32,000 nucleotides of DNA from Nostoc punctiforme PCC 73102 (GCF_000020025.1 NC_010628.1:90001-122000); one strand, 5' to 3'; numbered from the stretch's first letter, positions 13,560 to 29,903 are shown. Notes: generated by a model from the sequence alone, not told the origin. A program made the numbers and translations.

Positions 13560-16500
13560 ATGCCTCGAAAACGTCAGCTAGTCAAGGCAATTCAAAAAAC
13601 CTTCAAACAAATTAGCAAGCAGTTTTTATCTGCAATTAACAAGCAAATTATTTGGCTATTAAGGGCTTTTTTCGGCAATCGTAGAAGACACAGTTCGGCG
13701 AATGCTGGCTTTGTGTTACCAACAGTGGCGATGGTAATTTTGGTAGTCGTACTGTTAACAACTGCAATTTTATTTCGGTCTTTTGAACGCTCTAAAAACG
13801 CCAGCAATGTCCGGGTGAATGAAGCTGTACTCAACGCTGCTAACCCCGCGATTGACCGTGCTAGAGCAAAAATAGATGCACTACTACAAGACCCAACACT
13901 ACCACGAGGAACTCCTTCTGATAGCGCTTTATATGATGTTCTGAAAAAAGATAAGTATAGGCTTGGTGATGAGACTCGCCTGAAGCTAGCTTTTGATATT
14001 GACGGTAATAACAGCATTGATACTAGTAGCGCTTTAGAGAATGATGAAACATTAAAAAGTGCTTGGAAATTTGCCGTTGATACAGATAATAATGGCAAAA
14101 AGGACACTTTTACTCTCTATGGAATCTACTTTCGTACACCACCTAGAAACAGTTCAGGGGAGTTTAGTCGTGAAAGAAAAACTCTAGAAGCTAGAACCCC
14201 ACCAATGGATGGTAGCTCAAATCAGAACTGCGGTAGTGCAAGTGGTTTTTCTAGCTTAGTGGGTAACTCAAGTTGGTATAAGTTAAACAGTGGCAATTTG
14301 GGTAAAAGCTTCTTTGTCTATAGTGTTAATGTACCAATCACTCAAATAGGCGGCTTAGATGCTACACAATACGAAACCTATAAAGGAAATAAAAGCGTTG
14401 TAGCACTAGAATTTCAGCAAGACCGCACTCGTATTCCCCTTTCAAATAATGCTGTTTGGTTTGAAAACGATCTGGAAGTGATAGTAGGTAGTACAACCTT
14501 ATTGCTGAATGGAAGAATTCATACAAATGCCAACTTACTAGTAGGGGTGATTAACAGTGGCGGTAATATAACTTTACGGCAAGTTAGCAGCAAAACATCT
14601 TGTTTCTACAATGAAGAAAATGGACAGATTAGTGTTGGAGGAAATGTCGGAAATGGTAGTCTTGCTCAAAATAATACTGGTACAAGTGTAAACGTTGACC
14701 TTTTTCAAGGTTTTGGTAATAACACTAACACAGATTATATTAACAACACCAATAAATCTACAAGCAGTACTGGTGGTGCAGAAATTGGATTTAATGATGC
14801 TGCATTCAATAAGCGTATTGCTGCGATGAAGACTACTGCGATCGCTTTATGCACAACGTGTAATGCCGCAGCTACAACTACTGGTAGTGCTCTCAAAGCT
14901 GCTGTTAACGCTAGTGGTTATCCAAGTGATGTGAAAACTAACGTCACAGCCAAAGTACTAGATACTGATGATATCACCACAGCAAAAAATATCCTTTATG
15001 ACGAAATAGAAGTTTATCTGCGAAATCGTACCCGTCGAGTACCCTTTGCAGAAGTAGCAGATGCTACAGGAGGGGATCAAACAGTTGGATATACCGCTAT
15101 TACTGCCAGCTTAGATCCTCAACAAACCTGGAGAGAGCCAGTAAATGCTAGTAATCAGCTTACTGGTGCAACAAGTATCACTTTAACTACTTCTCAGCTA
15201 GAGGAGACATATCCAGATTTACAAAAGAAAGAAGGCGTTCAGACTAAATTAGGCGATCGCGTTCTTGTAGGTAACAACTTACCTGCTTTATGGCAACAAG
15301 GCACTCAATATGTTGGCACAGAAGCTAACCAGTTAATTAGTAGTGGTGGTACTGTTGTTAATTGGACTAGACCAACTGGTTCAGATGCTCAACAAAGATG
15401 GCGTAATACTCAAATACAAGCTGTTACAGACCTGGGTTTATCAGACCGAAATGGTTTTTGGGAAGAAAATGCCACAGTAAATCCTGTAAACGATTTAGAT
15501 AGTGTGGGCGGTGTGCGGATTGTTACTGGTGCAGGTATTTATGTAGATGGTTCTGGTAGTGTTCCAAATACAATAACTGGCCCGTTTTACCCACGAGGTT
15601 CTAGTGCCCTTGGTTCATTCTTAACAGCTCCTTCAACTGATACTACAATTGTCTGGCCTGACACAATGCCGATGTCAACACCAGGAAATGGTCGCTCAGG
15701 CGATCTCAAAATGCGAGCGACGGCTGTTTATCACTACAAAGTAGACTATGGCACTGACCAAGAACCGATCGCTTGTGTGAGCAGCTACTACGATCCCTCG
15801 ACCGCAGATACAGCTAAAAACAAAGTTAATCAAGATGGTGGATATGGTGTAGATACTACCAACGGTCGCTCAAACAATGGCGTTGTTTACAACTTTCCTG
15901 GAAGAACCTCTTTTACAATTAACAAAACTCGTCTACAACTACAAGCCAACTTAAAATTCCCTAATGGGCGTTGGGTTAATCAACCTTTAAAAGATGCTCT
16001 CACAAAAATTGGAACTGCTACCACAGTACCTAGTACTGGTTTGCAGCTAGCTGATTATTCAGCAATTGATACAGCACTTTGTGCTATTTCCATTTTTAGT
16101 AGTCCAACTAGTTTTGTTACTCCTACTAACCAACCTGCTCATGGTGCAATCAGAGAAGCATCTTTTCTAGATGCCAGAGAAGCCAAGCAGATTAGTCCCT
16201 CAAACACATCAAGCACATACGACTTAGATTTAGAACAGCGCCAACCCCTAGAGGTTCGGGTAACTGACATTGATTTAGGTTCACTAGCGACCACAGCAAT
16301 AACGGCAAATGAGTATTTATTGCCTTATAGCGGCATTATTTACGCCTCTAGAGATGATGCCTTGCGCGATGCGAGTGAGCCATACACTGAAGGTAATGTA
16401 AGTAGCACATCTAACTCAGAGTTACTCAGCCCGACTGATTTTAAACTTGACCCCACACGCCGGCCAAACGGCATTCGCCTGATTAATGGGGGAACTTTAG

Positions 16501-18260
16501 CAAGAACTAGTACCAATGCTTACAATGCCAAAGAGAAAGGTTTGATTTTAGTAACAAATTTACCCGTATATATCAAGGGTAACTTCAATTTGCACCGCAC
16601 AAGTACAAGTAGCACTACGGAAATTGAGGAATTTACAGTTTCAGCAAGTACCGACTTCTATGGTCGCAGTACTCGCGAAGATAGATTTGCGTGTCGTCAA
16701 GGAAGAACAGGTTGTCCTACTACTGGAGGTGACTTTTGGAGACCAGCAACAATCATTGCCGATTCCATGACCTTACTATCTGGGTCATTTATAGATGGTG
16801 TGCGTAGCCAAGGCGATTACGATCTGAACAATAACACTGGTATTGCAGTTGAAGGTAACTTAAACACTACTAACTTTCCCTCCATACCTACTTTAGATGC
16901 AAGAAGACGAGACCGCCTGAAAAATGGCTTTTGGGAAAATGACTTTCTTACCAGTACCAATTGGCAATCCACCGCTAGCGGTCAGATAAATTATCCCAAC
17001 CTGAGTTTAGGCTCTTATGCACTAAATGGGGTAACACCGATTCAAAGAAGAATTAATAACTCCACGGCTACAAACAACCCTGGAGAGTACTTAATGGAAG
17101 TATGTACCAAGCTCTCGGTTTCTGATTGTGGCCCAGATGACTGGTATGTCGATCCATCAACCAGCCTGAAAGCATCTGCGGCAGTAGGTCAAACCTTCAG
17201 TATCACTACACACAAGGCTGGTACAACTGCTGTATTTGCCACTTCAGAATATGCACGCTATCCTCGTCGGGTCGCCTTTAAACGTAATGCTTCTAACCAA
17301 TTGGAGGAGCAAGGAAGTAGTAATAAATATGTACCCTTGGGTATAGATGATTCTGGAATAATCCAAGAGTTTGCTTATAGTTCAGGAGGTTTACCAAGAG
17401 CAAAGCAAAATGCTCTCTGGTTTAGAACATCAACAGATGCATCTATAGCAAATTTAGGAAAAGTAAGTTACGACTTTAACAACAGACTGTACTATTACCT
17501 TCCTATTGATGCTGACGGCGATGGTAGTGCCGATTCAACTGGTCAGCCGCTCTTAGTCCCAGTTTTGCAGATTCATGACGCAAGCAGTACCACTGGCATC
17601 AGGGGTGACGGAACAGCACAAAATGAGTTTAGAGATAACTGGATACAACAACCTAGTGATAACATCACTGTATATAATGCAACCTTTGTATTAGGAAATA
17701 GCCCCAGTAGAGCGGCTGAAACCTCAGCAGGTTTCCAAAACTTTGTACGATTTTTGGAAAACTGGAATCTTAAAACAGCCAAAATTAGTGGCAGTTTTAT
17801 TCAATTGAAGCGAAGTAGCTTCTCTACAGGCCCAATTTCACCTATTTTCGCTGCCAAATCAACAACTGGTGCAACTAATACCGCCAATGACACTACCGCT
17901 AATCTGAGCCTTTTTGACTATGCACTAGACACTTATCCAACTCCGAACGGCTCAGGTCTGTTACCTTTCTACAACGCACCAACAAACAGAAGTTGGGGGT
18001 TTGATGTTGGTCTGTTGTCAGAGCAACCAGATTTGTTTGCCCAAAGATTTACCTTAACTCCATCAGGTCGCCCGAATGAGTACTTTAGAGAAGTTGGTCG
18101 AGATGATACCTGGGTGAAAACATTACTCTGTGCTGGTGAAGCTAGTAACCAAACAGGTATACCAGCATCAGGAGTGACAGTAACTTACGCAAATGCAGTT
18201 CCCAATGAATATCGCCCAACAAGTAGTTGTCCTTCATCCATACCAGATGACTCGGTTTAA
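13560..18260 (+). CDS. hpsA: giant secreted/anchored protein of the hormogonium polysaccharide secretion locus (HpsA-like)
   Basis: 1566-aa ORF with GGGAAG about 8 nt upstream of the ATG. It has a basic N-terminus, then the anchor G-FVLPTVAMVILVVVLLTTAILF (pilin-like but lacking Glu5). The remainder is N/T/S/G-rich and I cannot name a domain in it. It sits directly upstream (21-nt gap) of three pseudopilin genes. The symbol is assigned by remembered synteny with N. punctiforme hpsA-K. Confidence 0.75.
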   Translation: MPRKRQLVKAIQKTFKQISKQFLSAINKQIIWLLRAFFGNRRRHSSANAGFVLPTVAMVILVVVLLTTAILFRSFERSKNASNVRVNEAVLNAANPAIDRARAKIDALLQDPTLPRGTPSDSALYDVLKKDKYRLGDETRLKLAFDIDGNNSIDTSSALENDETLKSAWKFAVDTDNNGKKDTFTLYGIYFRTPPRNSSGEFSRERKTLEARTPPMDGSSNQNCGSASGFSSLVGNSSWYKLNSGNLGKSFFVYSVNVPITQIGGLDATQYETYKGNKSVVALEFQQDRTRIPLSNNAVWFENDLEVIVGSTTLLLNGRIHTNANLLVGVINSGGNITLRQVSSKTSCFYNEENGQISVGGNVGNGSLAQNNTGTSVNVDLFQGFGNNTNTDYINNTNKSTSSTGGAEIGFNDAAFNKRIAAMKTTAIALCTTCNAAATTTGSALKAAVNASGYPSDVKTNVTAKVLDTDDITTAKNILYDEIEVYLRNRTRRVPFAEVADATGGDQTVGYTAITASLDPQQTWREPVNASNQLTGATSITLTTSQLEETYPDLQKKEGVQTKLGDRVLVGNNLPALWQQGTQYVGTEANQLISSGGTVVNWTRPTGSDAQQRWRNTQIQAVTDLGLSDRNGFWEENATVNPVNDLDSVGGVRIVTGAGIYVDGSGSVPNTITGPFYPRGSSALGSFLTAPSTDTTIVWPDTMPMSTPGNGRSGDLKMRATAVYHYKVDYGTDQEPIACVSSYYDPSTADTAKNKVNQDGGYGVDTTNGRSNNGVVYNFPGRTSFTINKTRLQLQANLKFPNGRWVNQPLKDALTKIGTATTVPSTGLQLADYSAIDTALCAISIFSSPTSFVTPTNQPAHGAIREASFLDAREAKQISPSNTSSTYDLDLEQRQPLEVRVTDIDLGSLATTAITANEYLLPYSGIIYASRDDALRDASEPYTEGNVSSTSNSELLSPTDFKLDPTRRPNGIRLINGGTLARTSTNAYNAKEKGLILVTNLPVYIKGNFNLHRTSTSSTTEIEEFTVSASTDFYGRSTREDRFACRQGRTGCPTTGGDFWRPATIIADSMTLLSGSFIDGVRSQGDYDLNNNTGIAVEGNLNTTNFPSIPTLDARRRDRLKNGFWENDFLTSTNWQSTASGQINYPNLSLGSYALNGVTPIQRRINNSTATNNPGEYLMEVCTKLSVSDCGPDDWYVDPSTSLKASAAVGQTFSITTHKAGTTAVFATSEYARYPRRVAFKRNASNQLEEQGSSNKYVPLGIDDSGIIQEFAYSSGGLPRAKQNALWFRTSTDASIANLGKVSYDFNNRLYYYLPIDADGDGSADSTGQPLLVPVLQIHDASSTTGIRGDGTAQNEFRDNWIQQPSDNITVYNATFVLGNSPSRAAETSAGFQNFVRFLENWNLKTAKISGSFIQLKRSSFSTGPISPIFAAKSTTGATNTANDTTANLSLFDYALDTYPTPNGSGLLPFYNAPTNRSWGFDVGLLSEQPDLFAQRFTLTPSGRPNEYFREVGRDDTWVKTLLCAGEASNQTGIPASGVTVTYANAVPNEYRPTSSCPSSIPDDSV

Positions 18261-18281
18261 TTAAATATTAGGTAAATTGCC

Positions 18282-18962
18282 ATGATGATAGGGAAACAAG
18301 CTAAAAACAAAAGGTTACAGACAGCTAGATCCTACCTACGAGCCAGCGAAGGGGGTTTCACAATTATTGAATCTTTGGTAGCGATACTTGTAGTTAGCAT
18401 TTTGCTAGTTGCGATCGCACCAGTTCTTTCCCTGTCAGTGGCAACTCGCGTACAATCCCGACGGATAGAATTAGCCACACAAGCTGCCAAATCATATATT
18501 GATGCGGTCAAAACTAAGAAAATCGCGGCCCCAACCTCTACGGGTACTGATACCCTAACTGCATACGCCGCTCCCACAGCTACGGGAACTTTAACTTGTG
18601 CAGCAAACTCTTACTGCACCGTTCCAACGGGGACATCTTTGTACTGCGTTGATTTTGATAGTAGTGGTGCCTGTGAAAACACCAGTGTTACAGACATGAT
18701 TGTAGAGGGTTTTCGCTACAACTTAGCTAGTACCAGCGCTATTAGTGGATATGCTTTAGGTGTGCGGGTTTACAGAGCAGATGCTTTCAAAGATAGTACT
18801 ACTCTACTCAAGAACACTTCTACAACTAAGACAACACAAGCTACTTTCACCGGAGGTATAGGTCAGCGAACAACACCTTTAGTGGAAATGACAACAGATA
18901 TCAACGACACTGTGCCTAAATATAGCGACCTTTGTGCCCGCTACACAGGTGGTTGCAATTAA
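18282..18962 (+). CDS. hpsB: pseudopilin (prepilin-type N-terminal cleavage/methylation domain), HpsB-like
   Basis: The N-terminus is ...RASEGG|FTIIESLVAILVVSILLVAIAPV with Glu at +5. A C-terminal Cys pair (CARYTGGC) resembles a pilin D-region. T/S-rich tracts are present. Confidence 0.8.
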   Translation: MMIGKQAKNKRLQTARSYLRASEGGFTIIESLVAILVVSILLVAIAPVLSLSVATRVQSRRIELATQAAKSYIDAVKTKKIAAPTSTGTDTLTAYAAPTATGTLTCAANSYCTVPTGTSLYCVDFDSSGACENTSVTDMIVEGFRYNLASTSAISGYALGVRVYRADAFKDSTTLLKNTSTTKTTQATFTGGIGQRTTPLVEMTTDINDTVPKYSDLCARYTGGCN

Positions 18963-18970
18963 ATGTTGGT

Positions 18971-19089: not shown

Positions 19090-20058
19090 ATGATAAATTC
19101 ACTGAAATTTATCCTGAGTACTCAATTAAAACGCTCTGGAATAAATAAGACAATTAGCGGCTTTACCCTGATTGAGCTGCTAGTAGCTATGGTTATGGCA
19201 ATACTAATCATAACGCCTTTAATGGCTTTTATGATTAACATTTTAGATGGCGATCGCAAAGAACAAGCTAAGGCAACTTCTGAGCAAGAAATCCAAGCAG
19301 CACTGGATTATATCAATCGTGACTTACAACAAGCAGTTTACATCTACGATGCTGATGGTGTTACTAGAAATGCAGATACTACTATTACTAATTCAGGAAT
19401 TAAAAACCAAATACCACCACTGAAATCTGCTACTAGCTGTAGTGATAGCACTATTTGTAAACCAATACTTGTTTTTTGGAAACGTCAGCTTATAGCTGAT
19501 AGTGTTGGTATTAATGCCAGCACTGAGACTAGTGCTGCAAATACAGATGATGGCTTTGCTTATTCATTAGTAGCGTATTACTTAATCACCAATACAGATG
19601 GTGCAAACTCTACCTGGTCTAAAGAGGCACGCATTGGTAGATTTGAACTTCGAGGACCGGTGAATGCAACTAATGCTAATACAACAGGAAGTGCAACTGA
19701 TAGTGGATTTAATCCACCATCACTAAATAAAAACGGTACTTTACTCAAAGACAAGATGGATCAATGGCAGGCTGCATCAGCAAATTATAGTAATCAAGTC
19801 GTAACTTTGGTTGATTACATTAGCACCACTGCCCCTAGTAGCACCGCACCTTGCTCTAGTCCAAACCTTGTAGGCAGTCAAACAAGTGGATTTTTTGCTT
19901 GTGTCGATGCCAACGACGTGTTAGCCCAGGTGTACATCAGAGGTAATGCACTTGCTCGTGTGCAAAATAATAACCTAGCTTATGCTAATAACACAAAAAC
20001 TTATTTTCCCAGTTCAAGCATTCGAGTCCAAGGACGCGGATTTTTATTTAGTAAATAA
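19090..20058 (+). CDS. hpsC: pseudopilin (prepilin-type N-terminal domain), HpsC-like
   Basis: The N-terminus is ...NKTISG|FTLIELLVAMVMAILIITPL with Glu at +5. At 322 aa it is the largest of the four pseudopilins. It has a Cys pair near the C-terminus (APCSSP...FFACVD) and N/T/S-rich tracts. Confidence 0.8.
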   Translation: MINSLKFILSTQLKRSGINKTISGFTLIELLVAMVMAILIITPLMAFMINILDGDRKEQAKATSEQEIQAALDYINRDLQQAVYIYDADGVTRNADTTITNSGIKNQIPPLKSATSCSDSTICKPILVFWKRQLIADSVGINASTETSAANTDDGFAYSLVAYYLITNTDGANSTWSKEARIGRFELRGPVNATNANTTGSATDSGFNPPSLNKNGTLLKDKMDQWQAASANYSNQVVTLVDYISTTAPSSTAPCSSPNLVGSQTSGFFACVDANDVLAQVYIRGNALARVQNNNLAYANNTKTYFPSSSIRVQGRGFLFSK

Positions 20059-20086: not shown

Positions 20087-20785
20087 ATGCAAGGCGCAGC
20101 TTTATTGAGGTTAAACAAAATTCCTAAACAATTTGTAGTGGAAACACCCAAGCAGGCATCTCTGGCGAACAGACTTCGCTATGTATCTGCATACTTCCAA
20201 AAGGATGCTGGCTTTAGCCTGATAGAATTAATAGTAGTAATGCTCTTAGTTGGAATTTTATCAGCGATCGCAGCTCCTGGTTGGCTTGCCTTTGTAAATC
20301 GCCAGCAAGTGAACAAAGTTAATGACGCTGTTTTAGCTGCACTACAACAAGCACAGCGCGAAGCTAAAAACAAAAAACTTAACTACAGTGTCAGTTTTCA
20401 GAAAAATAGCACAACCCAAAATGTAGAGGTTGCCATTTATCGTAGCGATGGAAGTCCCACATGGAAACCTTTAGGGGCGGATATAGGAGTTAGCTCTAAT
20501 AAATTTCTGATAGGTACGAATCTCAGCAGTGAAAATACTGCTGGTTCTTCTGTATCTGACACTTTAAGTGCATCAACAAAAATTACCTTTGACTATATGG
20601 GGACTTTACCAAATGCAAACTTTGGAACAATTACAGCCCCTGCGACAGAAGCACCTGGGTTAAAAATTGTGGTAGCTGTACCAAACTCTGCAAATTCTAC
20701 ATCGGCTAGTAGCACCAAGCGATGCGTCATTGTGAAAACTCTCTTAGGTTCAATGCTTACAGCAAAAGATGATAAATGCAGTTAA
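20087..20785 (+). CDS. hpsD: pseudopilin (GspH/FimU-like by N-terminal pattern), HpsD-like
   Basis: The N-terminus is ...FQKDAG|FSLIELIVVMLLVGILSAIAAPGWLAFVNRQ. The C-terminal motif KRCVIVKTLLGSMLTAKDDKC is shared with the ORF at 23996. An alternative in-frame GTG start lies at 20138. Confidence 0.8.
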   Translation: MQGAALLRLNKIPKQFVVETPKQASLANRLRYVSAYFQKDAGFSLIELIVVMLLVGILSAIAAPGWLAFVNRQQVNKVNDAVLAALQQAQREAKNKKLNYSVSFQKNSTTQNVEVAIYRSDGSPTWKPLGADIGVSSNKFLIGTNLSSENTAGSSVSDTLSASTKITFDYMGTLPNANFGTITAPATEAPGLKIVVAVPNSANSTSASSTKRCVIVKTLLGSMLTAKDDKCS

Positions 20786-20984: not shown

Positions 20985-21950
20985 ATGACTGAAAACCTTG
21001 ATATTACTATAGCGATCCCAACTTATAACGGTGAAAGTCGTTTGCCAGAACTATTAGAACGACTACAAAACCAAATTCACACCGACAATTTATCTTGGGA
21101 AATTATAGTTGTAGACAATAACAGCACTGATAACACAGCTAAAGTTGTTGAAACCTATCAACAAAATTGGCAATGTCCTTACCCTTTGAAGTATTGCTTT
21201 GAAGCACAACAGGGGGCAGCCTATGCCCGAAAAAGGGCAGTTGCAGAAGCTAAAGGTAGATTGATAGGTTTTCTAGATGATGACAACTATCCAGTATCAA
21301 ATTGGGTGTATGCAGCTTATACTTTTGGTGAAAAATATCCCAAAGTGGGAGCTTATGGTAGCCAAATTCACCCTGACTGGGAAATAGAACCACCAGAGAA
21401 CTTTCAGCGAATTGCCCCATTCTTGGCAATTACAGAGCGAGGTAATTTACCGCTATTATATGAACCAGCTAAAAAATTACTACCTCCCTCTGCTGGACTT
21501 GTTGTGCGTAAACAAGCGTGGTTAGAAAGTGTACCGGATAAGCCTATTTTAACTGGGAGAGTTCAAGGCAATATGCTTACCAGTGAAGACTTAGAAATGC
21601 TGTCTTACATTCAAAAATCAGGCTGGGAAATTTGGTATAACCCAGAGATGGAAATATTTCACAAAATACCAACTTCTCGTTTACAAAAAGATTATTTAAT
21701 TCCGTTTTTTAGAGGTATTGGACTTAGCCGTTGTGTAACTAGAATGGTGAATATAAAAGAAATGTATAGGCCATTTTTCATTTTAGCTTATATGATAAAT
21801 GACCTACGCAAAATTGCTTTACACTTACTTAAATACAATACTCTGTTGAAAAGTGATTTAGTTGCTGCTTGTGAAATGCAACTGTTTTTAAGCAGCTTAT
21901 TTAGTCCTTTTTACCTTTTGAAGAATGGCTATTTAACTAAAAAACAATGA
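20985..21950 (+). CDS. hpsE: family 2 glycosyltransferase, HpsE-like
   Basis: The GT2 N-terminal signature is ITIAIPTYNGESRLPELL...WEIIVVDNNSTDNT...FLDDDN (DxD). It is collinear with the next ORF over its whole length. Confidence 0.8.
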   Translation: MTENLDITIAIPTYNGESRLPELLERLQNQIHTDNLSWEIIVVDNNSTDNTAKVVETYQQNWQCPYPLKYCFEAQQGAAYARKRAVAEAKGRLIGFLDDDNYPVSNWVYAAYTFGEKYPKVGAYGSQIHPDWEIEPPENFQRIAPFLAITERGNLPLLYEPAKKLLPPSAGLVVRKQAWLESVPDKPILTGRVQGNMLTSEDLEMLSYIQKSGWEIWYNPEMEIFHKIPTSRLQKDYLIPFFRGIGLSRCVTRMVNIKEMYRPFFILAYMINDLRKIALHLLKYNTLLKSDLVAACEMQLFLSSLFSPFYLLKNGYLTKKQ

Positions 21951-21962: not shown

Positions 21963-22952
21963 ATGGATAAACATACACTTGGCAGCTTAGATTTTACTGT
22001 ATCTATTCCTACATACAATGGAGCCAAACGTTTACCGAAAGTTTTAGATTTGCTACTCAATCAGACAGGAGTAGAAAATCTTAATTGGGAAATTATTATT
22101 ATTGATAATAATAGTAAAGATGATACAAATAAAATAAGTGAGTATTATCAAAATTTTTCTAATAAAAATTTTTCAGTGAGGTACTTTTTAGAGAAAGAAC
22201 AGGGAATAGCTTTCGCAAGAATGCGGGCTATAAATGAAGCAAGAGGCGAGTTTATTGCATTCATAGATGATGATAATCTTCCAGCAAATGATTGGGTTTT
22301 ACAATCTTATCTTTTCGGCAAAGAACATCCTCAAGCTGGTGCCTGGAGTGGTCAAATTCATGGAGATTTTGAAGTAAACCCCCCAAAAGATTTTGCAAGG
22401 ATTCAAGCCTTTCTAGCCATTAGAGAACACGGACTAAAACCATATTTATTTGATGCAGATAATTTAAGACTTCCTCCAGGGGCTGCGCTAGTCGTCCGTA
22501 AACAAGCTTGGTGTGAAAGTGTTCCTGAACAATTGGTTTTTAAAGGTAGACTAACTAAATTGATGGTTGCTGGAGATGATACAGAAGCTCTCTTATACTT
22601 GCACAAAGAAGGTTGGGAAATCTGGTACAATCCGGCGATGCATATCGATCATCAAATTCCACATTGGCGGCTAGAAAAAGATTACTTACTAGTACTAGCG
22701 CGTGGTTGTGGCCTGTGTATTTTCCAGCTCCGCTTGATCAATGCTAAAAATTGGCAAAAACCAATACTTTTCGTTAAAACTATTTTGGGAAATTTACACC
22801 GATTATTACACCATCTTATTAAGTATAGAGGTCAATTAGAAAGTAATTTAATAGCAGTTTTTGAGATTAACTTTTACTTAGCTAGTATGATGAGCCCCTT
22901 TTATTCCTTAAGATGGAAGTTAGACAAAATTTTTAAAACAAGAAGTATATAA
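21963..22952 (+). CDS. hpsF: family 2 glycosyltransferase, tandem paralogue of the previous gene (HpsF-like)
   Basis: FTVSIPTYNGAKRLPKVL...WEIIIIDNNSKDDT...FIDDDN. Shared blocks with hpsE include LVVRKQAW.ESVP, GWEIWYNP and SPFY. The gap to hpsE is 12 nt. Confidence 0.8.
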   Translation: MDKHTLGSLDFTVSIPTYNGAKRLPKVLDLLLNQTGVENLNWEIIIIDNNSKDDTNKISEYYQNFSNKNFSVRYFLEKEQGIAFARMRAINEARGEFIAFIDDDNLPANDWVLQSYLFGKEHPQAGAWSGQIHGDFEVNPPKDFARIQAFLAIREHGLKPYLFDADNLRLPPGAALVVRKQAWCESVPEQLVFKGRLTKLMVAGDDTEALLYLHKEGWEIWYNPAMHIDHQIPHWRLEKDYLLVLARGCGLCIFQLRLINAKNWQKPILFVKTILGNLHRLLHHLIKYRGQLESNLIAVFEINFYLASMMSPFYSLRWKLDKIFKTRSI

Positions 22953-22953
22953 A

Positions 22954-24030
22954 ATGATTAAGTCAACTTTAAACAAAACATTAATTAGTGTGATTATCCC
23001 AGCTTACAATAGTGAAAAAACTATTAAAAAAACTATTGAATCTGTTTTAAATCAAACTTTTCATAATTTTGAATTAATTGTAATAAATGATGGTTCTCAA
23101 GATTCAACATTAGAAGTTATTAGAAAAATTCCAGACTCGCGAATACAAGTATTTTCCTATCCTAATGCTGGCGGAAATGTTAGTCGTAATCGAGGGTTAA
23201 ACCATGCTGTTGGAAAATTTGTTAGTTTCTTAGATGCAGATGATGTTTGGACACCTGATAAACTTCAGCATCAATTAAAGGCTTTGCAAAAAAACGTTAC
23301 TGCAAAAGTTGCTTATAGTTGGACTGATTATATTGATGAAAAGGGTGAATTTATACTTTCAGGGAAGCGAGTTACCGCTAATGGAAATGTTTATGAAAGT
23401 TTGTTACTAAATAATTTTTTAGAGAATGGCTCCAATCCTTTAATTTGTAGAAAAGCTTTAATTACATTAGGTGGCTTTGATGAATCTCTAGGTGCGGCTC
23501 AGGATTGGGATATGTGGCTGCGATTAGCTTATAAGTTTAATTTTATATGCGTCCCATCTGTACAAATCTTATATCGCATAACTCCTAATTCAGTTTCTTG
23601 CAATCTTGTTAGACAGGAAAAATCCTGTTTACAAGTGCTTGAGAGGGCCTATAAGGAAAGACCTTCTCTAAGAGACGCTAATGGAACGACACTAAAGGAT
23701 AGTTGGAATCTTTGTCTGGCAAATTTATATAAATACCTGGTCTGCAAAGCTCTACAAAAGCCATTAAACAGAAAAAAAGGTATAGCAGCTGCTATATTTT
23801 TATGTAAGTATTTTATTTATGACCCTTCAAGACTTCAGAATATAAATTTCACCCTAAAACTGTCACTGAAAATTGTCATAATCCTTATTCTGCCGACCTT
23901 GCTAGACATTATTACTAACCAGCGTCAAGTTAGAAGGCAAGAAACTGAAACATTGCTCAACGACTGGGTAGTTGAAAAGCGCTCAGAAAACAAAAATGGA
24001 TATCCAGGTGCATTTACCGTCTCTAGTTAA
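22954..24030 (+). CDS. hpsG: family 2 glycosyltransferase (different subfamily), HpsG-like
   Basis: ISVIIPAYNSEKTIKKTIESVLNQTF.NFELIVINDGSQDST...FLDADD. It starts 1 nt after the hpsF stop codon and has a hydrophobic C-terminal segment. Confidence 0.8.
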   Translation: MIKSTLNKTLISVIIPAYNSEKTIKKTIESVLNQTFHNFELIVINDGSQDSTLEVIRKIPDSRIQVFSYPNAGGNVSRNRGLNHAVGKFVSFLDADDVWTPDKLQHQLKALQKNVTAKVAYSWTDYIDEKGEFILSGKRVTANGNVYESLLLNNFLENGSNPLICRKALITLGGFDESLGAAQDWDMWLRLAYKFNFICVPSVQILYRITPNSVSCNLVRQEKSCLQVLERAYKERPSLRDANGTTLKDSWNLCLANLYKYLVCKALQKPLNRKKGIAAAIFLCKYFIYDPSRLQNINFTLKLSLKIVIILILPTLLDIITNQRQVRRQETETLLNDWVVEKRSENKNGYPGAFTVSS

Positions 24031-24565
24031 TGCAAAGAAGCTTTTGAATAAGCACTCCTGTAGTGGTTTTACCCTGCTAGAGATGTTAGTAGTTGTTGTA
24101 TTAATTGGTATATTAGCTACGCTGGGAATAGCTAATTGGCTAGCTTTTGTAGAGACTCGCCGTCTCAACACTGCTCAAAACGAAGTTCAGCTTGCTATTC
24201 ATCAAGCCCGAAGGCAAGCCACTAAGGAAAAGTTGACTTGGCAAGCCAGTTTTCGCGAGCAAGACGGCATTATTCAATGGGCTGTTCATCCTGCTACAAT
24301 AAACCCATCTACGGCTAACTGGAATAACATAGATTCCAATGTACGCTTAGACTCTGAGACAACCTTGCAACTGTCAAATAATATACGCAAAGTTCAATTT
24401 GACTACAGAGGGAATGCTAAAAGCCCTAACGATCTAGGACGAATCACACTATCGAGTAAGTCTGGTGGTAAAGTCAAGCGTTGTGTTATTGTTTCAACGA
24501 TTTTAGGGGCAATGCGAACGGCAAAGGAGCATACTACAACCGATGACGACAAGTATTGCTATTAG
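23996..24565 (+). CDS. hpsH: pseudopilin, paralogue of HpsD (HpsH-like)
   Basis: ...KHSCSG|FTLLEMLVVVVLIGILATLGIANWLAFVETRR, with C-terminal KRCVIVSTILGAMRTAK...C. Three possible in-frame starts exist: TTG 23972 (ORF track), ATG 23996, and TTG 24044. TTG 24044 is the only one downstream of the hpsG stop and gives an 8-aa leader. The TAG stop at 24563-24565 sits on the IS junction. Confidence 0.75.
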   Translation: MDIQVHLPSLVNAKKLLNKHSCSGFTLLEMLVVVVLIGILATLGIANWLAFVETRRLNTAQNEVQLAIHQARRQATKEKLTWQASFREQDGIIQWAVHPATINPSTANWNNIDSNVRLDSETTLQLSNNIRKVQFDYRGNAKSPNDLGRITLSSKSGGKVKRCVIVSTILGAMRTAKEHTTTDDDKYCY

Positions 24566-25566
24566 AGTTGTCGGGAAATAAAAGATAAGTGAGGCAATGC
24601 TGGTCTTGTAATTGGGATTCTCTTAAGCAGCCATCAAGTAGAAGTTCCATAATCCTGCTGCGGTCAGCATCAAATGGTCATCAAAGTTTTCAATCCGATT
24701 ACGATAAATGACACTGGCGGCGTTGTAGCGCTTCACACCAGCAAAGGCATTTTCGCAAACTACACGGGATTGACTCAATTGACGATTCTCCGTTTTTTGA
24801 AGGTCACTTAACTTGCCCCCTTTGGGCTTTTTGTGAGGAAGATGGAGATTGTCATACTGCTTCTGTAATCCCTGAAAGCCCGAGTCTACTTCAATCGGAA
24901 TTTCATCAGGCACACTACCTGCAATGTCATCTTCGTCATGAAAACGTTTGTCATGCAGTTTGCCTTCTCGTGCTTTGCTTAAGATCAAGACCCGTTTGGT
25001 TTCATCAACTGCCGCCAAGTGTTTACGCGTATGACGTTTCTTTTTACCGGAGTAATTCTGTTGTTGTTGTTCTCTTTCTTGAGGTCGCGCAATTGGGCGT
25101 TCTGTCCCATCAATCATCACTCGTTGCACTCCTGGAAAGCGTGACAAAAATGCTTCAATGCTTTCGAGATGGCGTTCCGGCAGCGCCATCTTCTGTCCCA
25201 AAGCCGCTTCTAATATTGGCTGCAATCGATGCATCCACTCATGTGCCTGGGAGCGATGCATATCAAAGAGCAGTCCCGCCACATCGAAGGTCGGATAACA
25301 TTTGAAATAGAAAAGGATGAAAAACAATTTGTCTTGGGCTGTAAGTAAGCGGGCTTTGCGTCCTCCACCCAGGCCACGTTGACGAGGCTTGGCCTGTTGA
25401 GTATCTAGGTACATCGTGGTAAACGTGGGCAAAAGGGCATCAAATGCTTTCCGGTTCAACCCAGTTAATGCCCTCAACAGTCGGTCTTGCTTCAGCGCAC
25501 CTTCAATATTCAGCATCATTCTTCCCTACCACTGCTGTCTATTCTCTCTTATTTCCCGACAAGTCT
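24564..25566 (-). mobile_element. IS element (~1.0 kb), IS5-superfamily / Harbinger-like (DDE_Tnp_4-type transposase)
   Basis: Terminal inverted repeats are agagttgtcgggaaataaaagataa (from 24564) and its partner ending ...ttctctcttatttcccgacaagtct (to 25566), matching 24 of 29 positions when aligned from 24561/25569. The hexamer CTATTA occurs directly repeated at both junctions (24559-24564 and 25565-25570). Exact ends are therefore ambiguous within a few bp. Confidence 0.8.
24623..25519 (-). CDS. DDE transposase (Harbinger/IS5-like, DDE_Tnp_4-type)
   Basis: 298-aa ORF. The N-terminus is HTH-like. Candidate catalytic residues lie in MIDGTERPI, VDSGFQG and CENAFAGVK, a spacing typical of DDE_Tnp_4 proteins. 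Confidence 0.8.
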   Translation of the reverse strand: MMLNIEGALKQDRLLRALTGLNRKAFDALLPTFTTMYLDTQQAKPRQRGLGGGRKARLLTAQDKLFFILFYFKCYPTFDVAGLLFDMHRSQAHEWMHRLQPILEAALGQKMALPERHLESIEAFLSRFPGVQRVMIDGTERPIARPQEREQQQQNYSGKKKRHTRKHLAAVDETKRVLILSKAREGKLHDKRFHDEDDIAGSVPDEIPIEVDSGFQGLQKQYDNLHLPHKKPKGGKLSDLQKTENRQLSQSRVVCENAFAGVKRYNAASVIYRNRIENFDDHLMLTAAGLWNFYLMAA

Positions 25567-25603
25567 ATTAAAATATCTCTTAGTTTCTTAAAAAAGGTAT
25601 TGT

Positions 25604-26251
25604 GTGCTGAATTTACCAGCAAACCCAAAACAGCACTTAATTATTTTTACTCGCTATCCAGAACCAGGTAAGACAAAAACCCGATTGATACCTGCTTTAG
25701 GAAATCTTGGTGCTGCCAATCTTCAACGGGAAATGACTGAATATACAATATTTCAGGTTCAAGAATTACAAAAAGCCATTGCCATATCTGTGGAAGTGCG
25801 ATTTGCAGGTGGCGATTTGCAACTCATGCAAGACTGGCTGGGGTTAGATTTGGTTTACCAATCTCAAGGTGAAGGGGATCTAGGTTCGCGGATGGCACAA
25901 TCGCTTTTCGATGCTTTTCAATCTGGTGCAGAAAAAGTAATTATCATCGGTACAGATTGTCCTGGAGTAAATAGCCAGATTTTAGCAACAGCTTTTGAAA
26001 AGTTACACACCTTTGACCTCGTACTTGGACCTGCGATCGACGGTGGATATTACTTAATTGGTTTGCGCCAAGCTATCCCGGAGTTATTCGTTAACATTGA
26101 GTGGGGAACTGCTCAAGTATTCCAGAAAACCGTAGACATTGCCCAGAAACTTTATTTATCACACGTGAATTTGTCGCCTTTAGCTGATGTTGACCGACCC
26201 GAGGATCTGCCAATTTGGGAGCAAGCCCTTGTGGGTGAGGTGAAAGGATGA
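25604..26251 (+). CDS. hpsI: DUF2064 / TIGR04282-like nucleotidyl- or glycosyl-transferase-fold protein (HpsI position)
   Basis: 215-aa ORF with GTG start. The pattern HLIIFTRYPEPGKTKTRL...GTDCP...DGGYYLIG is what I associate with DUF2064. The symbol is only by remembered position in the N. punctiforme hps locus. The gene lies ~37 nt after one IS and 38 nt before the next. Confidence 0.6.
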   Translation: MLNLPANPKQHLIIFTRYPEPGKTKTRLIPALGNLGAANLQREMTEYTIFQVQELQKAIAISVEVRFAGGDLQLMQDWLGLDLVYQSQGEGDLGSRMAQSLFDAFQSGAEKVIIIGTDCPGVNSQILATAFEKLHTFDLVLGPAIDGGYYLIGLRQAIPELFVNIEWGTAQVFQKTVDIAQKLYLSHVNLSPLADVDRPEDLPIWEQALVGEVKG

Positions 26252-26289
26252 GGGAGATATAGTGATTTTTATATGGATGCACAACCCAC

Positions 26290-27736
26290 TAGGGGCGCAC
26301 ATCTGTCATTGGTGTCAACTTAAGCAAAAAGTAAGCAAAAGATGTAATCTAAGAACATTACTAATGATGTTCTTAGAGATACATCATGGCAAGAAAACGC
26401 CCAGCGCGAACAGGAAACCCAGACCTGCGGCAACAAAAACAAGTACCGATGCCGCCAATAGAGGAAATTGAACAAAAAATCTACTCATTACTATCTCCGC
26501 TCAACTTTAAACCCTTGAAATTGTACGAAACGGAAGAAAAGAAACCATTCCGAGACAGAATACTGACCTTATCGGTAATGATGGCGCTCGTTGTGAGTTT
26601 AGTATATCGTCAGATTCCTGGATTAAGAGAAGTACAAAGAGTCCTATGCGAAGAAGGATTATTGTGGGCAGGTCGGATTGAAGTGAGTGCCCAAGCAGTT
26701 TCAAAACGATTGAGAACACTACCAATAGAATTATTTGCACAAATTTTCGAGCAAGTAATGGAAAGAATGAATGTGCAGCCACAAAATCAGGCAGTACCAG
26801 AGAATTGGCAGCCAGTATGCGCCAAATTTACAGCCATCTGGATTGCTGACGGTTCAACCCTAGAAGCACTAAGACGCAAACTCAAAGTACTACAAGAACA
26901 AGAAAAAACACTTGCTGGCAAAATTATGATGGTGGTAGAAGCATTTAGCCATCACCCAGTCACAACCTGGTATACGCAAAACAGCAAAGCCAATGATAAA
27001 ACTTGGTGCGAACAATTACTTGAACGCCTACCAATTGGTGGATTGCTGATTTTTGATTTAGGATTTTTTAAGTTTCCTTGGTTTGATGCGTTCACAGAAG
27101 CTGATAAGTTTTTTTTGACAAGACTGCGAGAAAAAACTTCTTACAAGGTGATACGTTGTTTGACCAATGCCTCATTCTACCGTAATGAAATTATATCTAT
27201 GGGGGAATATCGCTCTAATCCTTGCCAGCACCAAGTACGTTTAGTTTCTGTTTTGTGGGGTTCAACTTGGTACTATTACCTGACAAATGTACTCGACCCA
27301 CAAATGTTATCTGCTCATCTTGTCTGTGAATTAGGGAGCAGGCGCTGGCGCGTTGAAGATGCTTTTCTGCTCACAAAAAGACTTTTAGGTTTAGCTTATA
27401 TTTGGGTTGGGGACAACAATGGCGTACAAATCCAGATTTTTGCCACTTGGATTTTTTATGCTGTTCTTAACCAATTATGTATCGATATAGCGATCGCCCT
27501 CAACCAACCTTTAGACCGAATTTCTACAGAAATGGTATTTCGTGCTTTATACCATTTTTCACAAGCTGTTCTCCGTGGTGATGCACATGAGGCTGTTCCT
27601 TATCTTGTGGAACGTCAAAAGCTGTTTGGATTAGTTAAAGCAAGGCGTAAGCGTCATCGAGAGATTGACGCTTACACCCAACAAATTTGGGCAAAATCTT
27701 CTTAAGTTGACACCAATGCACATCTGTGTGCCCCTA
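26290..27736 (+). mobile_element. IS4-family insertion sequence (~1.45 kb) with ~35-bp terminal inverted repeats
   Basis: The left IR is taggggcgcacatctgtcattggtgtcaacttaag (26290-26324). The right IR is cttaagttgacaccaatgcacatctgtgtgccccta (27701-27736). The inner 18 bp are a perfect match and the outer part is imperfect with one indel. The transposase stop codon lies inside the right IR. No flanking direct repeat was found. Confidence 0.85.
26386..27705 (+). CDS. IS4-family DDE transposase
   Basis: 439-aa ORF. It contains WIADGSTLE (D), LLIFDLGFF (D) and RRWRVEDAFLLTKR, which fits the R(3)E(6)K part of the IS4 YREK signature. The Tyr position is Gly here. Confidence 0.8.
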   Translation: MARKRPARTGNPDLRQQKQVPMPPIEEIEQKIYSLLSPLNFKPLKLYETEEKKPFRDRILTLSVMMALVVSLVYRQIPGLREVQRVLCEEGLLWAGRIEVSAQAVSKRLRTLPIELFAQIFEQVMERMNVQPQNQAVPENWQPVCAKFTAIWIADGSTLEALRRKLKVLQEQEKTLAGKIMMVVEAFSHHPVTTWYTQNSKANDKTWCEQLLERLPIGGLLIFDLGFFKFPWFDAFTEADKFFLTRLREKTSYKVIRCLTNASFYRNEIISMGEYRSNPCQHQVRLVSVLWGSTWYYYLTNVLDPQMLSAHLVCELGSRRWRVEDAFLLTKRLLGLAYIWVGDNNGVQIQIFATWIFYAVLNQLCIDIAIALNQPLDRISTEMVFRALYHFSQAVLRGDAHEAVPYLVERQKLFGLVKARRKRHREIDAYTQQIWAKSS

Positions 27737-28027
27737 CAAAATGCCTATGTTGCAAGCGATTGAGAACTGAAAACAAGGGAAATCGGGTAATTAATGAGTC
27801 TTTTCTAACGTTACGGATTATACTTAGATTTTAAAATACTAGGAATTTCCTGAAGACACTGTACATAACAAATGTTACTGTGGCCTAGTTGAAAACCAAG
27901 AGGCAGATAGCCTTTACCAATATTGAATCTGCTTTGTATTTCTACACAACAGTCACGGTCATAGGCACAATATTCAAGTAACTTGAAATATGAAAATCAC
28001 TCGTATTCACCGCCAGTTTGAAAAACT

Positions 28028-28870
28028 ATGGTTAACCGTTTTACTTCCGTGAGTACTGCCCTCACCGTTAAGGTAGTTGGAATAATCTGCATTTTGTCGT
28101 TTTTTGTGGACTTTTTGATTCTATTGTTACCCTTTCAACCGACTGATCGGGTATGGCAAATCAACTTGGCAACAGCGCTAGTCGATCGGGGGATTGTTCC
28201 TCTAGTAGGACTGGGACTGCTGTTTGCTGCCTATTGGATTGAAAACGCTGATGCAGGAAGCGATCGCCCCCAAGGGATCGATTTAAGATTTCCCGCTGTG
28301 ATTCTCTCAAGTATTTTAGGGTTGATGTTCTTGCTGATTTTTCCCCTGCACCTCAATAACGTCAATCAAGCTAAGACTCAAACACTCAATCGAATCACCC
28401 AAGAAGCAGATCAGGCAGAAGCTCAACTCAACACTCGCTTATCGCAATTGCAAGCACAACTGAATACTGAGCAAGGAAAAGCTCAATTAGATCAACTGCG
28501 AACCCAAACCAAAGCTCAGTTTAGTGAAATCCTCAAAGACGATCAAAAATACAAGCAAGCGCTTGAAAGCTCTCAAATTCCCCCAAATATCAAAGAGTTA
28601 CTGAAGAAGGCTAAAACAGATCCCCAAGCGCTTGACAAAGCTATCGAACAACAAACAGATATTCAGACACTGCGAACTCAACAACTGAGCCAAGTTCGCC
28701 AACGCAGAGAAGAAGCAGAACAACAAGCTAAAGACACTGCTTGGAAGTCTGGACTGCGGATTGGAATTAGCAGTTTGTTATTATCCATTGGTTACATTAT
28801 CATCGGCTGGACAGGCTTAAAAGGTATGGGTGCTGTACAAGGTGGTAAACCTAAAGCTACCGCCCGTTAA
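28028..28870 (+). CDS. hpsJ: membrane protein with central Gln-rich coiled coil (HpsJ-like)
   Basis: 280-aa ORF. It has three N-terminal hydrophobic segments, a ~120-aa Q/A/L-rich heptad-like region (AEAQLNTRLSQLQAQLNTEQGKAQLDQLRTQTKAQ...) and one C-terminal hydrophobic segment. The symbol is assigned by position and memory of the HpsJ family description. Confidence 0.6.
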   Translation: MVNRFTSVSTALTVKVVGIICILSFFVDFLILLLPFQPTDRVWQINLATALVDRGIVPLVGLGLLFAAYWIENADAGSDRPQGIDLRFPAVILSSILGLMFLLIFPLHLNNVNQAKTQTLNRITQEADQAEAQLNTRLSQLQAQLNTEQGKAQLDQLRTQTKAQFSEILKDDQKYKQALESSQIPPNIKELLKKAKTDPQALDKAIEQQTDIQTLRTQQLSQVRQRREEAEQQAKDTAWKSGLRIGISSLLLSIGYIIIGWTGLKGMGAVQGGKPKATAR

Positions 28871-28994
28871 TCCACTATTGGCATGGCAGTAAGACTTATA
28901 CAAAAATTATTCGGTTTATACTGCCATGCGCCTAATAGCTAATAAAAATAAAAAGGCAATTATCACTGAGTAAAATCGCTATAGAACTTGAGTA

Positions 28995-29903
28995 ATGTTC
29001 TCAATTTACATACTGACATATAACGAAGAACTAGATATTGCTGCTTGTATCGAATCAGCGATGCTATCGGATGACATTATTGTTGTGGATTCATGCAGTA
29101 GCGATCGCACTGTGGAAATTGCCAGTAGCTATCCCATCCGCGTTGTCCAACACGCTTTTGAAAGCCACGGCCGCCAACGCACCTGGATGTTAGAGTCTAT
29201 CCCCCCGAAGCACGAATGGGTTTATATTCTCGAAGCTGATGAGCGGATGACACCAGAACTGTTCGCGGAATGCGAAAAGGTAAGTCAGAATCTTGATTAC
29301 ATTGGTTACTACGTGGCTGAACGTGTCATGTTCATGAATCGTTGGATTCGCTACAGCACACAGTATCCCCGTTACCAAATGCGTCTCTTCCGCCACGGGA
29401 AGGTGTGGTTTACAGACTATGGTCATACTGAGCGGGAAGTTTGTGACGGTGCAACCAGCTTTTTAAAAGAAACATACCCCCACTACACTTGTAGCAAAGG
29501 TTTGAGCCGTTGGATTGATAAGCATAACCGTTATTCTACAGATGAAGCTCAAGAAACGCTGTATCAGCTAGAACAGGGAAAGGTCAACTGGCAAGATTTA
29601 TTCTTTGGTAAATCGGAAGTCGAAAAACGCCGCGCCTTGAAAGATTTGTCTTTGCGTTTACCCGCCAGACCGTTGCTACGCTTTGTATATATGTATTTTA
29701 TGTTAGGCGGATGTTTAGATGGACACGCTGGACTTGCCTGGTGTACATTGCAGGCATTCTACGAATACTTAATTTTGCTCAAAGTTTGGGAAATGAAGTA
29801 TCTACCAAAACCTAATTTAGACGTAACAGCAATTCTGGCACAAGAGAGTCCACAACAGATACAGTGTGCAGATTCGGAAACTACACAGGCTGATGTGGTG
29901 TAA
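28995..29903 (+). CDS. hpsK: family 2 glycosyltransferase (HpsK position)
   Basis: MFSIYILTYNEELDIAACIESA...IIVVDSCSSDRTVEIA...ILEADE (DxD-like). The GT2 N-terminal fold pattern is present. Confidence 0.7.
   Translation: MFSIYILTYNEELDIAACIESAMLSDDIIVVDSCSSDRTVEIASSYPIRVVQHAFESHGRQRTWMLESIPPKHEWVYILEADERMTPELFAECEKVSQNLDYIGYYVAERVMFMNRWIRYSTQYPRYQMRLFRHGKVWFTDYGHTEREVCDGATSFLKETYPHYTCSKGLSRWIDKHNRYSTDEAQETLYQLEQGKVNWQDLFFGKSEVEKRRALKDLSLRLPARPLLRFVYMYFMLGGCLDGHAGLAWCTLQAFYEYLILLKVWEMKYLPKPNLDVTAILAQESPQQIQCADSETTQADVV

Follow-up and report, generated by a model that had tools for sequence, protein, structure and literature searches.

The hpsA-K locus of Nostoc punctiforme PCC 73102 re-examined: gene content, two insertion sequences, and divergent hpsA-hpsC alleles

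The hpsA-K locus of Nostoc punctiforme (strain ATCC 29133/PCC 73102) is a known, named, and genetically studied gene cluster. According to the literature, its genes are required for the accumulation of hormogonium polysaccharide (HPS) and for hormogonium motility. Here, we re-examine this locus within a stretch of 32,000 nucleotides (GCF_000020025.1, NC_010628.1:90001-122000; hereafter 'the window', with positions counted from its first letter), in which the hps genes extend from position 13560 to position 29903. We regard it as virtually certain that the window contains the type locus itself (Npun_F0066-F0078) rather than a homolog, and re-examination leaves the identity of the locus unchanged. 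The locus comprises the following genes and elements:

13560-18260, + strand: hpsA (Npun_F0066), giant protein of 1566 aa, PilX-like by published classification (NF038301)
18282-18962, + strand: hpsB (Npun_F0067), PilV-like minor pilin/pseudopilin, G↓FTIIE (NF038303)
19090-20058, + strand: hpsC (Npun_F0068), PilW/GspJ-like minor pilin, G↓FTLIE (NF038304)
20087-20785, + strand: hpsD (Npun_F0069), FimT/GspH-like minor pilin, G↓FSLIE (N_methyl)
20985-21950, + strand: hpsE (Npun_F0070), GT2 glycosyltransferase (NF038302; PF00535 at 3.8e-26)
21963-22952, + strand: hpsF (Npun_F0071), GT2 glycosyltransferase, paralog of hpsE (~48% identity; NF038302)
22954-24030, + strand: hpsG (Npun_F0072), GT2 glycosyltransferase (Glyco_tranf_2_2; PF10111 at 2.1e-53)
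23996-24565, + strand: hpsH (Npun_F0073), GspH/FimT-like minor pilin, G↓FTLLE (N_methyl, PF12019)
24565-25565, - strand: IS5-family insertion sequence (IS), ~1.0 kb, with DDE_Tnp_4/HTH_Tnp_4 transposase and inverted repeats (tag position 0074)
25604-26251, + strand: hpsI (Npun_F0075), DUF2064 protein (PF09837/TIGR04282), GT-A-like nucleotide-diphospho-sugar transferase
26307-27718, + strand: ISNpu8, IS4-family IS of 1412 bp (NF033592; terminal repeats; record ACC78877.1)
28028-28870, + strand: hpsJ (Npun_F0077), membrane protein (NF050014)
28995-29903, + strand: hpsK (Npun_F0078), soluble GT2 glycosyltransferase (PF00535 at 3.4e-13)

Profile scores, identical proteins, and locus tags together identify the window as the type locus. 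Against NCBIfam equivalog models, HpsA scored 1901.9 bits with NF038301 (cut-off 400) across model positions 1-1503 of 1503, HpsB 275.5 bits with NF038303 (cut-off 150), and HpsC 411.1 bits with NF038304 (cut-off 200). The HpsE model NF038302 (cut-off 300) recovered both paralogs, the first with 522.5 bits and the second (HpsF) with 469.0 bits, and HpsJ reached 371.2 bits with the NCBIfam model NF050014 (cut-off 260). A preliminary description of the window, made from the DNA sequence alone, had assigned the cluster to hpsA-K and had named profile searches beforehand as the test of that assignment; these searches place the Hps proteins far above the equivalog cut-offs. By exact-sequence comparison, HpsA is 100% identical to ACC78867.1, and HpsI, the ISNpu8 transposase, and HpsJ match ACC78876.1, ACC78877.1, and ACC78878.1, respectively. 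The gene order A-B-C-D-E-F-G-H-I-J-K, on a single strand with two IS elements interposed, agrees with the published tags (hpsA-H, Npun_F0066-F0073; hpsI, F0075; hpsJ, F0077; hpsK, F0078 [PMC10581220, Table 4]), and the unused tags 0074 and 0076 coincide with the two transposase genes. Set beside the published hpsA-K locus (Risser and Meeks 2013), the window has the same DNA, identical proteins, and matching order and tags, with zero differences; the two IS elements are part of the reference genome and are seldom mentioned as features of the locus.

By DNA and protein comparison, the order from metH to DUF502 is kept in relatives (metH-hpsABCDEFGHIJK-DUF502). The remaining genes of the window are housekeeping genes (lipoate ligase, M23 peptidase, riboflavin synthase, MetH, DUF502, NusB). 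An open reading frame (ORF) map recovers every ORF that the preliminary description had listed, each at the coordinates given there and on the + strand. That description had overlooked the two transposase ORFs, one of which lies on the minus strand.

Four of the proteins, HpsB, HpsC, HpsD, and HpsH, carry a class III signal peptide of the form G↓FxxxE followed by a single hydrophobic helix each. Motif and hydropathy thus bear out the prepilin-type N-termini described earlier for the ORFs starting at 18282, 19090, 20087, and 23996. The Pfam N_methyl model matches HpsC (21.6 bits), HpsD (30.3 bits), and HpsH (30.5 bits) past its gathering cut-off, with HpsB (20.9 bits) marginally below the cut-off of 21.2 bits. 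The secondary profile matches are split by class: HpsB to PilV, HpsC to GspJ/ComGF, HpsD to PpdA/GspH, and HpsH to GspH, the last of these lying above the cut-off in Pfam (PF12019, 24.1 bits; cut-off 21). HpsD and HpsH are 27-33% identical to each other (tblastn). A GspG-type major pseudopilin was not found among the hps pseudopilins, whose best scores with that model were 17-33 bits (cut-off 88.85). In Leptolyngbya, the orthologs of hpsA, B, C, and H are contiguous (LBDG_47480-47510), with the transferase genes scattered elsewhere (PMC10581220); this unlinked arrangement speaks for two separable modules, one of pilins and one of sugar enzymes.

HpsA had been described as a 1566-aa ORF with no nameable domain. 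This is correct as regards Pfam domains, but the protein does possess a prepilin-like N-terminus, G50↓FVLPT, without Glu5, and one hydrophobic helix at aa 45-77 (motif and hydropathy). PilX and GspK, like HpsA, are without Glu5. IMG names several HpsA homologs 'PilX' or 'PulG', and a homology search with HpsA residues 40-330 retrieved HpsA fragments only, a few of them named 'PulG' or 'type II secretion system protein' and none with Pfam domains. HpsA was modelled with AlphaFold2 (AF2) as two overlapping segments, residues 1-1200 and 701-1566, for which the mean predicted local distance difference test (pLDDT) scores were 65.5 and 71.2, respectively. Residues 300-1080 are confident in the first of these models, and residues 297-394 form short regular strands, a suggestive feature at most. 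As modelled, the HpsA body is confidently folded and has no solved relative that sequence or fold searches of the PDB could find; by sequence, nothing was returned from the PDB at E<=1.

A 2026 preprint, based on the clustering of predicted structures of cyanobacterial pilins, places HpsA-like proteins in a 'PilX_EPS' subfamily in which the pilin fold is interrupted by an expanded beta-solenoid, proposed to substitute for the PilY1 tip plug (bioRxiv 10.64898/2026.02.12.705559). The same work reports that PilX_EPS strictly co-occurs with PilV_EPS, PilW, and FimT, assigns HpsA-D to a core minor-pilin set of the PilX-PilV-PilW-FimT type, and finds that deletion of the homologous set in Thermosynechococcus abolishes motility (bioRxiv 10.64898/2026.02.12.705559). 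The pilin nature of HpsA rests on its N-terminal motif, its gene context, and this preprint.

The four GT2 ORFs described earlier (starting at 20985, 21963, 22954, and 28995) are confirmed by PF00535 matches with E values from 3e-13 to 4e-35. By hydropathy, HpsG has a C-terminal hydrophobic segment, and its gene overlaps the start of hpsH by 35 nt. HpsK is 92-99% identical among close Nostoc relatives; its nearest solved sequence relatives are GmaR, which glycosylates flagellin in Listeria (1e-7), and SunS, an S-glycosyltransferase of peptides (5e-5), a similarity that gives a weak hint of a protein acceptor. The DUF2064-like ORF at 25604-26251, hpsI, is likewise present as described (PF09837 at 6.6e-35). 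HpsI scores 217.5 bits with TIGR04282 (cut-off 134), matches the solved PDB entry 3cgx ('putative nucleotide-diphospho-sugar transferase') at 9.4e-32, and is counted in the literature as a fifth glycosyltransferase. The earlier remark that the roles of HpsA and of the DUF2064 protein are unassigned is therefore out of date, the former having been classed in the preprint as a PilX-type minor pilin and the latter being treated in the literature as a glycosyltransferase and matching 3cgx.

The ORF at 28028-28870 (hpsJ), previously characterised as a transmembrane/coiled-coil/transmembrane protein, is present; its hydropathy profile shows three hydrophobic segments near the N-terminus and one near the C-terminus, joined by a Gln-rich linker of ~130 aa. 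In NCBIfam, the paralog families of HpsJ are annotated as 'cyanoexosortase A-/C-associated'. The sole exosortase of N. punctiforme, CrtB, is encoded far from hps, at a Wzx/Wzy/Wza locus, and HPS adhesion depends on it. Annotation hints that HpsJ may be a partner of this exosortase (CrtB) system.

Profile searches of all ORFs in the 32-kb window found no PilB/GspE, PilC/GspF, secretin, prepilin peptidase, or Wzx/Wzy/Wza. For a type II secretion system (T2SS), the window contains no GspE, GspF, GspD, GspC, GspL, or GspM; for a Wzx/Wzy cluster, it contains no flippase, polymerase, polysaccharide co-polymerase/outer-membrane polysaccharide export (PCP/OPX) protein, or initiating phosphoglycosyltransferase, and its transferases are of the GT-A type only. 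Published tags place the pil genes elsewhere (pilBT1C, Npun_R0116-0118; pilD, R2800; pilMNOQ, F5005-5008 [PMC10581220]), and the literature places Wzx/Wzy genes together with the Wza-type gene Npun_F0459 at the crtB locus. The suggestion in the preliminary description that the cluster borrows its motor thus stands, given a window with no ATPase, platform, or secretin and published pil tags elsewhere. Its companion statement, that the window holds neither motor nor exporter genes, is accurate for PilB, PilC, secretin, peptidase, and Wzx/Wzy/Wza, but it missed an MsbA/HepA-like ATP-binding cassette (ABC) exporter gene (5679-7442, + strand) that encodes a fused permease and ATPase of 587 aa scoring below all NCBIfam cut-offs. 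Located 6 kb upstream of hpsA, this gene keeps its synteny with the metH-hps region in relatives. We considered it as the missing exporter and rejected it, since opposite-strand genes and metH intervene, its matches are below cut-off, and it is not a published hps gene.

Taken together, we favour, with moderate confidence, the reading that the hps pilin genes encode a minor-pilin tip module operating on a separately encoded PilBCMNOQ machine and that the glycosyltransferases feed a Wzx/Wzy/Wza system located elsewhere. Under this reading, hpsA-D and hpsH would provide a complete core minor-pilin priming and tip set of a type IV pilus. The Hps minor pilins would insert into the inner membrane via their single N-terminal helices and be processed by the unlinked PilD, after which the PilBCMNOQ machine, likewise unlinked, would build them into the priming/tip complex of the PilA filament of hormogonia. 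Its cap would be the large body of HpsA, a putative adhesin for which the secreted polysaccharide track is the probable ligand. HpsE, F, G, I, and K, with HpsJ, would build or modify the fucose/galactose-containing HPS, and flipping, polymerisation, and outer-membrane export would fall to a Wzx/Wzy/Wza-type system encoded at other loci. The two modules are linked by the known mutual dependence of pili and polysaccharide, the pili pulling on HPS and HPS output requiring active pili. Locus identity, domain content, motifs, the lack of motor and Wzx/Wzy/Wza genes in the window, and IS anatomy are shown here, whereas we infer how the tip complex is assembled, whether HpsA serves as plug or adhesin, and how the work is shared with Wzx/Wzy. 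Bearing on the coupling, pilB and pilQ mutants are reported to lose HPS, and a mutant lacking hpsE-G is reported to have no soluble HPS that reacts with lectin and to recover in conditioned medium free of cells.

Several points weigh against this favoured reading. The class resemblances of three of the minor pilins are sub-threshold in NCBIfam: the second-best match of HpsB is PilV (TIGR02523, 27.2 bits; cut-off 52.2), HpsC scores 21.9 bits with GspJ (cut-off 64.85) and also matches ComGF and PRK10557 (prepilin-peptidase-dependent protein) weakly, and HpsD scores 31.4 bits with GspH (cut-off 80), its match to PRK10506 (PpdA-type) being sub-threshold too. HpsA, searched both at full length and as its N-terminal 265 aa, has zero Pfam matches at E<=10, including to PilX_N or any pilin domain; residues 1-296, where the pilin fold would be expected, are modelled by AF2 with low confidence; and Foldseek searches of the PDB with both AF2 models returned no match at E<1, confirming neither a pilin fold nor a beta-solenoid. 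The PilX class of HpsA, moreover, comes from a preprint. As to export, a 2025 review treats the HPS route, PilQ or Wza, as not settled (PMC12288463), and another paper of that year argues that PilQ is the slime nozzle (PMC12475490).

The latter argument favours the original Hps model, in which HpsB-D and HpsH form a short T2SS-like pseudopilus, a piston that, driven by the borrowed PilB/PilC motor, pushes the polysaccharide made by HpsE-G, HpsI, and HpsK through PilQ, with HpsA as an accessory membrane protein. We consider this model unlikely, yet it is the best of the alternatives. It draws on the linkage of pseudopilin and transferase genes, seen here and across Nostocales, on the lack of an exporter within the hps locus, and on the loss of HPS in pilB and pilQ mutants; secretins have been described as slime nozzles and the hps proteins proposed to act in a synthase-dependent system using PilQ (PMC12475490), and certain filamentous species that glide permanently are said to have hps genes yet no visible pili. 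Against a piston, no match to GspG exceeds the cut-off, and the four pilin-like proteins resemble four different minor classes. Homologs of Wzx, Wzy, Wzc, and Wza co-occur with the hps genes at other loci, and HPS can depend on pili in a regulatory manner, through DnaK1/DnaJ3 at active motors (PMC9239167). Nor does a piston fit well with the unlinked Leptolyngbya pilin set or with a unicellular species that needs the homologous minor-pilin set for motility.

An improbable second alternative, suggested by sequence relationships, is that HpsK, and perhaps HpsI, would glycosylate proteins (the minor pilins, HpsA, or PilA) rather than build a free polysaccharide. Both nearest solved relatives of HpsK, GmaR (1e-7) and SunS (5e-5), are protein-modifying GT2 enzymes; HpsK also matches the NCBIfam SunS model at 9e-7 and is soluble, and HpsA, B, and C have Ser/Thr/Asn-rich stretches. 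The similarity is, however, restricted to the generic GT2 catalytic domain and falls far under the family cut-offs, and the rescue of the hpsE-G deletion by conditioned medium argues for a secreted glycan product.

Comparison with known systems likens the hps pilins to the cyanobacterial EPS-type minor-pilin set (e.g. Thermosynechococcus tlr0680-82), which, like hps with HpsA as its putative PilX member, combines a large Glu5-less PilX-like protein with PilV-, PilW-, and FimT-like members bearing G↓FxxxE, has no motor genes of its own, and is required for motility. The hps set differs from it in the great size of the PilX member (1566 aa), in having two FimT/GspH-like genes (hpsD and hpsH), and in the placement of the pilin genes in a single cluster that also holds hpsJ and five transferase genes. 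The fimU-pilVWXY1E operon of Pseudomonas aeruginosa encodes four classes of minor pilins, which prime and cap a type IV pilus built by an unlinked motor, as proposed here for hps. In hps, however, the order is reversed (X-V-W-T), PilE is missing, transferase genes are embedded, and there is no PilY1 homolog, for which the enlarged HpsA body is the proposed replacement (bioRxiv 10.64898/2026.02.12.705559). With the T2SS pseudopilus, the locus shares prepilin-type subunits, a GspH-like one included, as well as a large subunit that lacks Glu5 and is comparable to GspK; unlike a T2SS, the hps window is without a GspG-type major subunit and without GspE/F/D/C/L/M, and the proposed cargo is a polysaccharide rather than a folded protein. 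Finally, in the S-motility of Myxococcus xanthus, too, pilus movement needs polysaccharide and polysaccharide output needs the pilus machine. The Myxococcus exopolysaccharide genes form a Wzx/Wzy cluster and are not known to be interleaved with minor-pilin genes.

The two IS elements account for the loose 'sub-block' spacing of the locus. DNA comparison of the window with Nostoc sp. NMS2, N. flagelliforme FACHB-838, and others is collinear from metH through DUF502, the sole breaks being the two insertions, which widened the hpsH-hpsI gap from ~36 to 1039 nt and the hpsI-hpsJ gap from ~250 to 1777 nt. Neither transposase has a match in any of 74 related loci, which are species representatives recovered via peptide patterns from this HpsA and for which all identities given below are best high-scoring-segment-pair values. 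The IS5-family element encodes an intact transposase of 298 aa (24623-25519, minus strand; PF13359 at 2.3e-25 plus HTH_Tnp_4). It has imperfect terminal inverted repeats of ~17 nt, GA(G/C)TTGTCGGGAAATAA, and a direct repeat, (C)TATTA, on each side, so that a DDE_Tnp_4 transposase, terminal inverted repeats, and a short target duplication together assign it to the IS5 family; the NCBIfam IS5 models match below their cut-offs, and no subgroup is given. The empty site in NMS2, which reads ...TGCTATTAAAAT..., implies that the element landed in the hpsH stop codon and converted TAA to TAG, the third base (G) coming from the IS, with HpsH unchanged. All independent short-read assemblies of this strain (Logan) end inside or ahead of the hps locus; the longest reaches 24 nt into this element, and its transposase sequence is found on 20 contigs, both of which fit a multicopy IS.

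ISNpu8 encodes its transposase at 26386-27705 (NF033592, 208 bits), is bounded by perfect 18-nt terminal inverted repeats, CATTGGTGTCAACTTAAG, and is flanked by a target duplication of 9-10 bp, (G)CACATCTGT. It thereby combines the features of the IS4 family, namely a DDE transposase, terminal inverted repeats, and a target duplication of 9-12 bp. The element sits in a GC-rich palindrome (hairpin) downstream of hpsI that is intact in N. flagelliforme FACHB-838. Every hps ORF is full length relative to its profile and the wild-type strain glides and secretes HPS, which indicates that both insertions are tolerated. That they instead uncouple hpsI and hpsJ-K from upstream transcription and mark a partly crippled, decaying copy is very improbable, because the absence of both elements from the 74 related loci, the widened gaps, and the antisense orientation of the IS5-family element are set against hps ORFs that match their profiles end to end, insertions that are precisely intergenic with target duplications, and wild-type hormogonia of this very strain that glide and secrete HPS; with all ORFs intact in the motile reference strain, we rejected a decaying locus.

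Two candidate regulatory features flank the locus:

13119-13127, + strand: J-box-like extended -10 element GGGTATTAT (consensus GGGaAtacT), candidate SigJ promoter of hpsA-D
29992-30021, + strand: terminator-like hairpin with 13-bp stem and T-rich tail, taken by position as the 3' end of the locus

The hpsA-D genes are reported to be sigJ-dependent and hpsE-G far less so (PMC6495340). A search upstream of hpsA for the J-box with exact or one-mismatch agreement found none, and the relaxed core GGGNANNNT alone matched; this core occurs twice in the 1 kb upstream of hpsA and in none of the other hps intergenic gaps, and the pattern at 13119-13127 is kept in 54 of the 54 related loci that align there. 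Judged by sequence, a SigJ-type promoter ~435 nt upstream of hpsA probably drives hpsA-D, and the J-box position and the sigJ dependence would together give hpsA a leader of ~430 nt. The J-box stands at the start of a block (~13080-13418) that is alignable across species. Scanning the window for Rfam families and tRNAs returned nothing, and the conserved hpsA leader thus corresponds to no known riboswitch. Scans for sigma-70 promoters and terminators gave results not above shuffled expectation; because terminator-like sites are not enriched over shuffles, the hairpin 3' of hpsK is a positional argument only.

Several other elements were noted around the locus. A GC-rich palindrome, GGGCAATTCATGAATTGCCC (13460-13487), lies just upstream of the hpsA start codon and resembles the target palindrome of ISNpu8. 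Downstream of metH, an element resembling a miniature inverted-repeat transposable element (MITE; 12548-12750) has 44-nt imperfect inverted repeats containing GGTGTACAC; a third copy of the repeat is present at 12903-12924, and the alignment with Nostoc sp. LEGE 12450 shows the 175-bp segment in inverted orientation. At 8045-8828 (- strand), two adjacent ORFs of 90 and 177 aa belong to no Pfam or NCBIfam family. The 177-aa ORF is 96% conserved in Nostoc sp. NMS2, and the stretch is the lowest-GC kilobase of the window (0.31).

The 74 related loci fall into two types. The identity of their HpsA to that of PCC 73102 is 53-89% in 28 loci and 38-43% in the other 46, and the split is discordant with relatedness: in some species representatives, the flanking proteins are 91-100% identical and the hpsA-C allele is 38-50% identical. 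In the discordant cases, MetH is at 91-98% and HpsJ/K at up to 100% identity. In Nostoc sp. LEGE 12450, for instance, MetH, HpsJ, and HpsK are 97%, 100%, and 99% identical, and HpsA, B, and C are 39%, 39%, and 47% identical, whereas HpsA from Fischerella, Chlorogloeopsis, and Pelatocladus, which are more distant genera, is of the same type as that of PCC 73102 (60-72%). DNA similarity to LEGE 12450 ends at 13908 and resumes at 19940, with only short islands in between at the parts of hpsB and hpsC that code for the N-terminal helices. The identities of HpsD, E, F, and H are bimodal across the 74 loci as well, which suggests that the locus is a mosaic. This two-type polymorphism is observed directly and is possibly new, as we have not found it described in the accessible literature.

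Between alleles, the N-terminal helix regions are conserved and the globular parts divergent, as in pilins; conserved assembly helices combined with swapped variable heads are the pattern expected of exposed pilus-tip proteins. Variation is also concentrated within HpsA: aa ~1100-1450 (window ~16860-17910) are 32-62% identical to those of the closest relative, NMS2, and the rest of the protein is mostly 84-100% identical. The AF2 model of residues 701-1566 nevertheless folds this hypervariable region with confidence, and it is a candidate exposed or ligand-binding domain. The minor-pilin operon of P. aeruginosa has divergent allelic sets that are exchanged between strains. We tentatively suggest, as a possibility less probable than not, that hpsA-hpsC may be an exchangeable specificity cassette subject to recombination and to diversifying selection on an exposed HpsA/B/C head. 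If so, the N-terminal helices and the transferase genes would stay fixed while the head varies, and what the hormogonium pili grip, be it a particular polysaccharide track, surface, or symbiotic host, could be determined by the head, which could instead allow escape from pilus-specific phages.

hpsA-K is the reference for the coupling of pili and slime in gliding filamentous cyanobacteria, a coupling that underlies dispersal, biofilms, and the infection of plants by Nostoc in symbiosis. The present analysis gives a cleaner parts list for the reference strain, in which the design of deletions and of expression experiments must allow for the two IS elements. The 'pseudopilins' of the locus resemble a full minor-pilin tip set with HpsA at its head more than they do a T2SS piston, and the apparent swapping of tip modules between close Nostoc relatives could bear on surface or host specificity.

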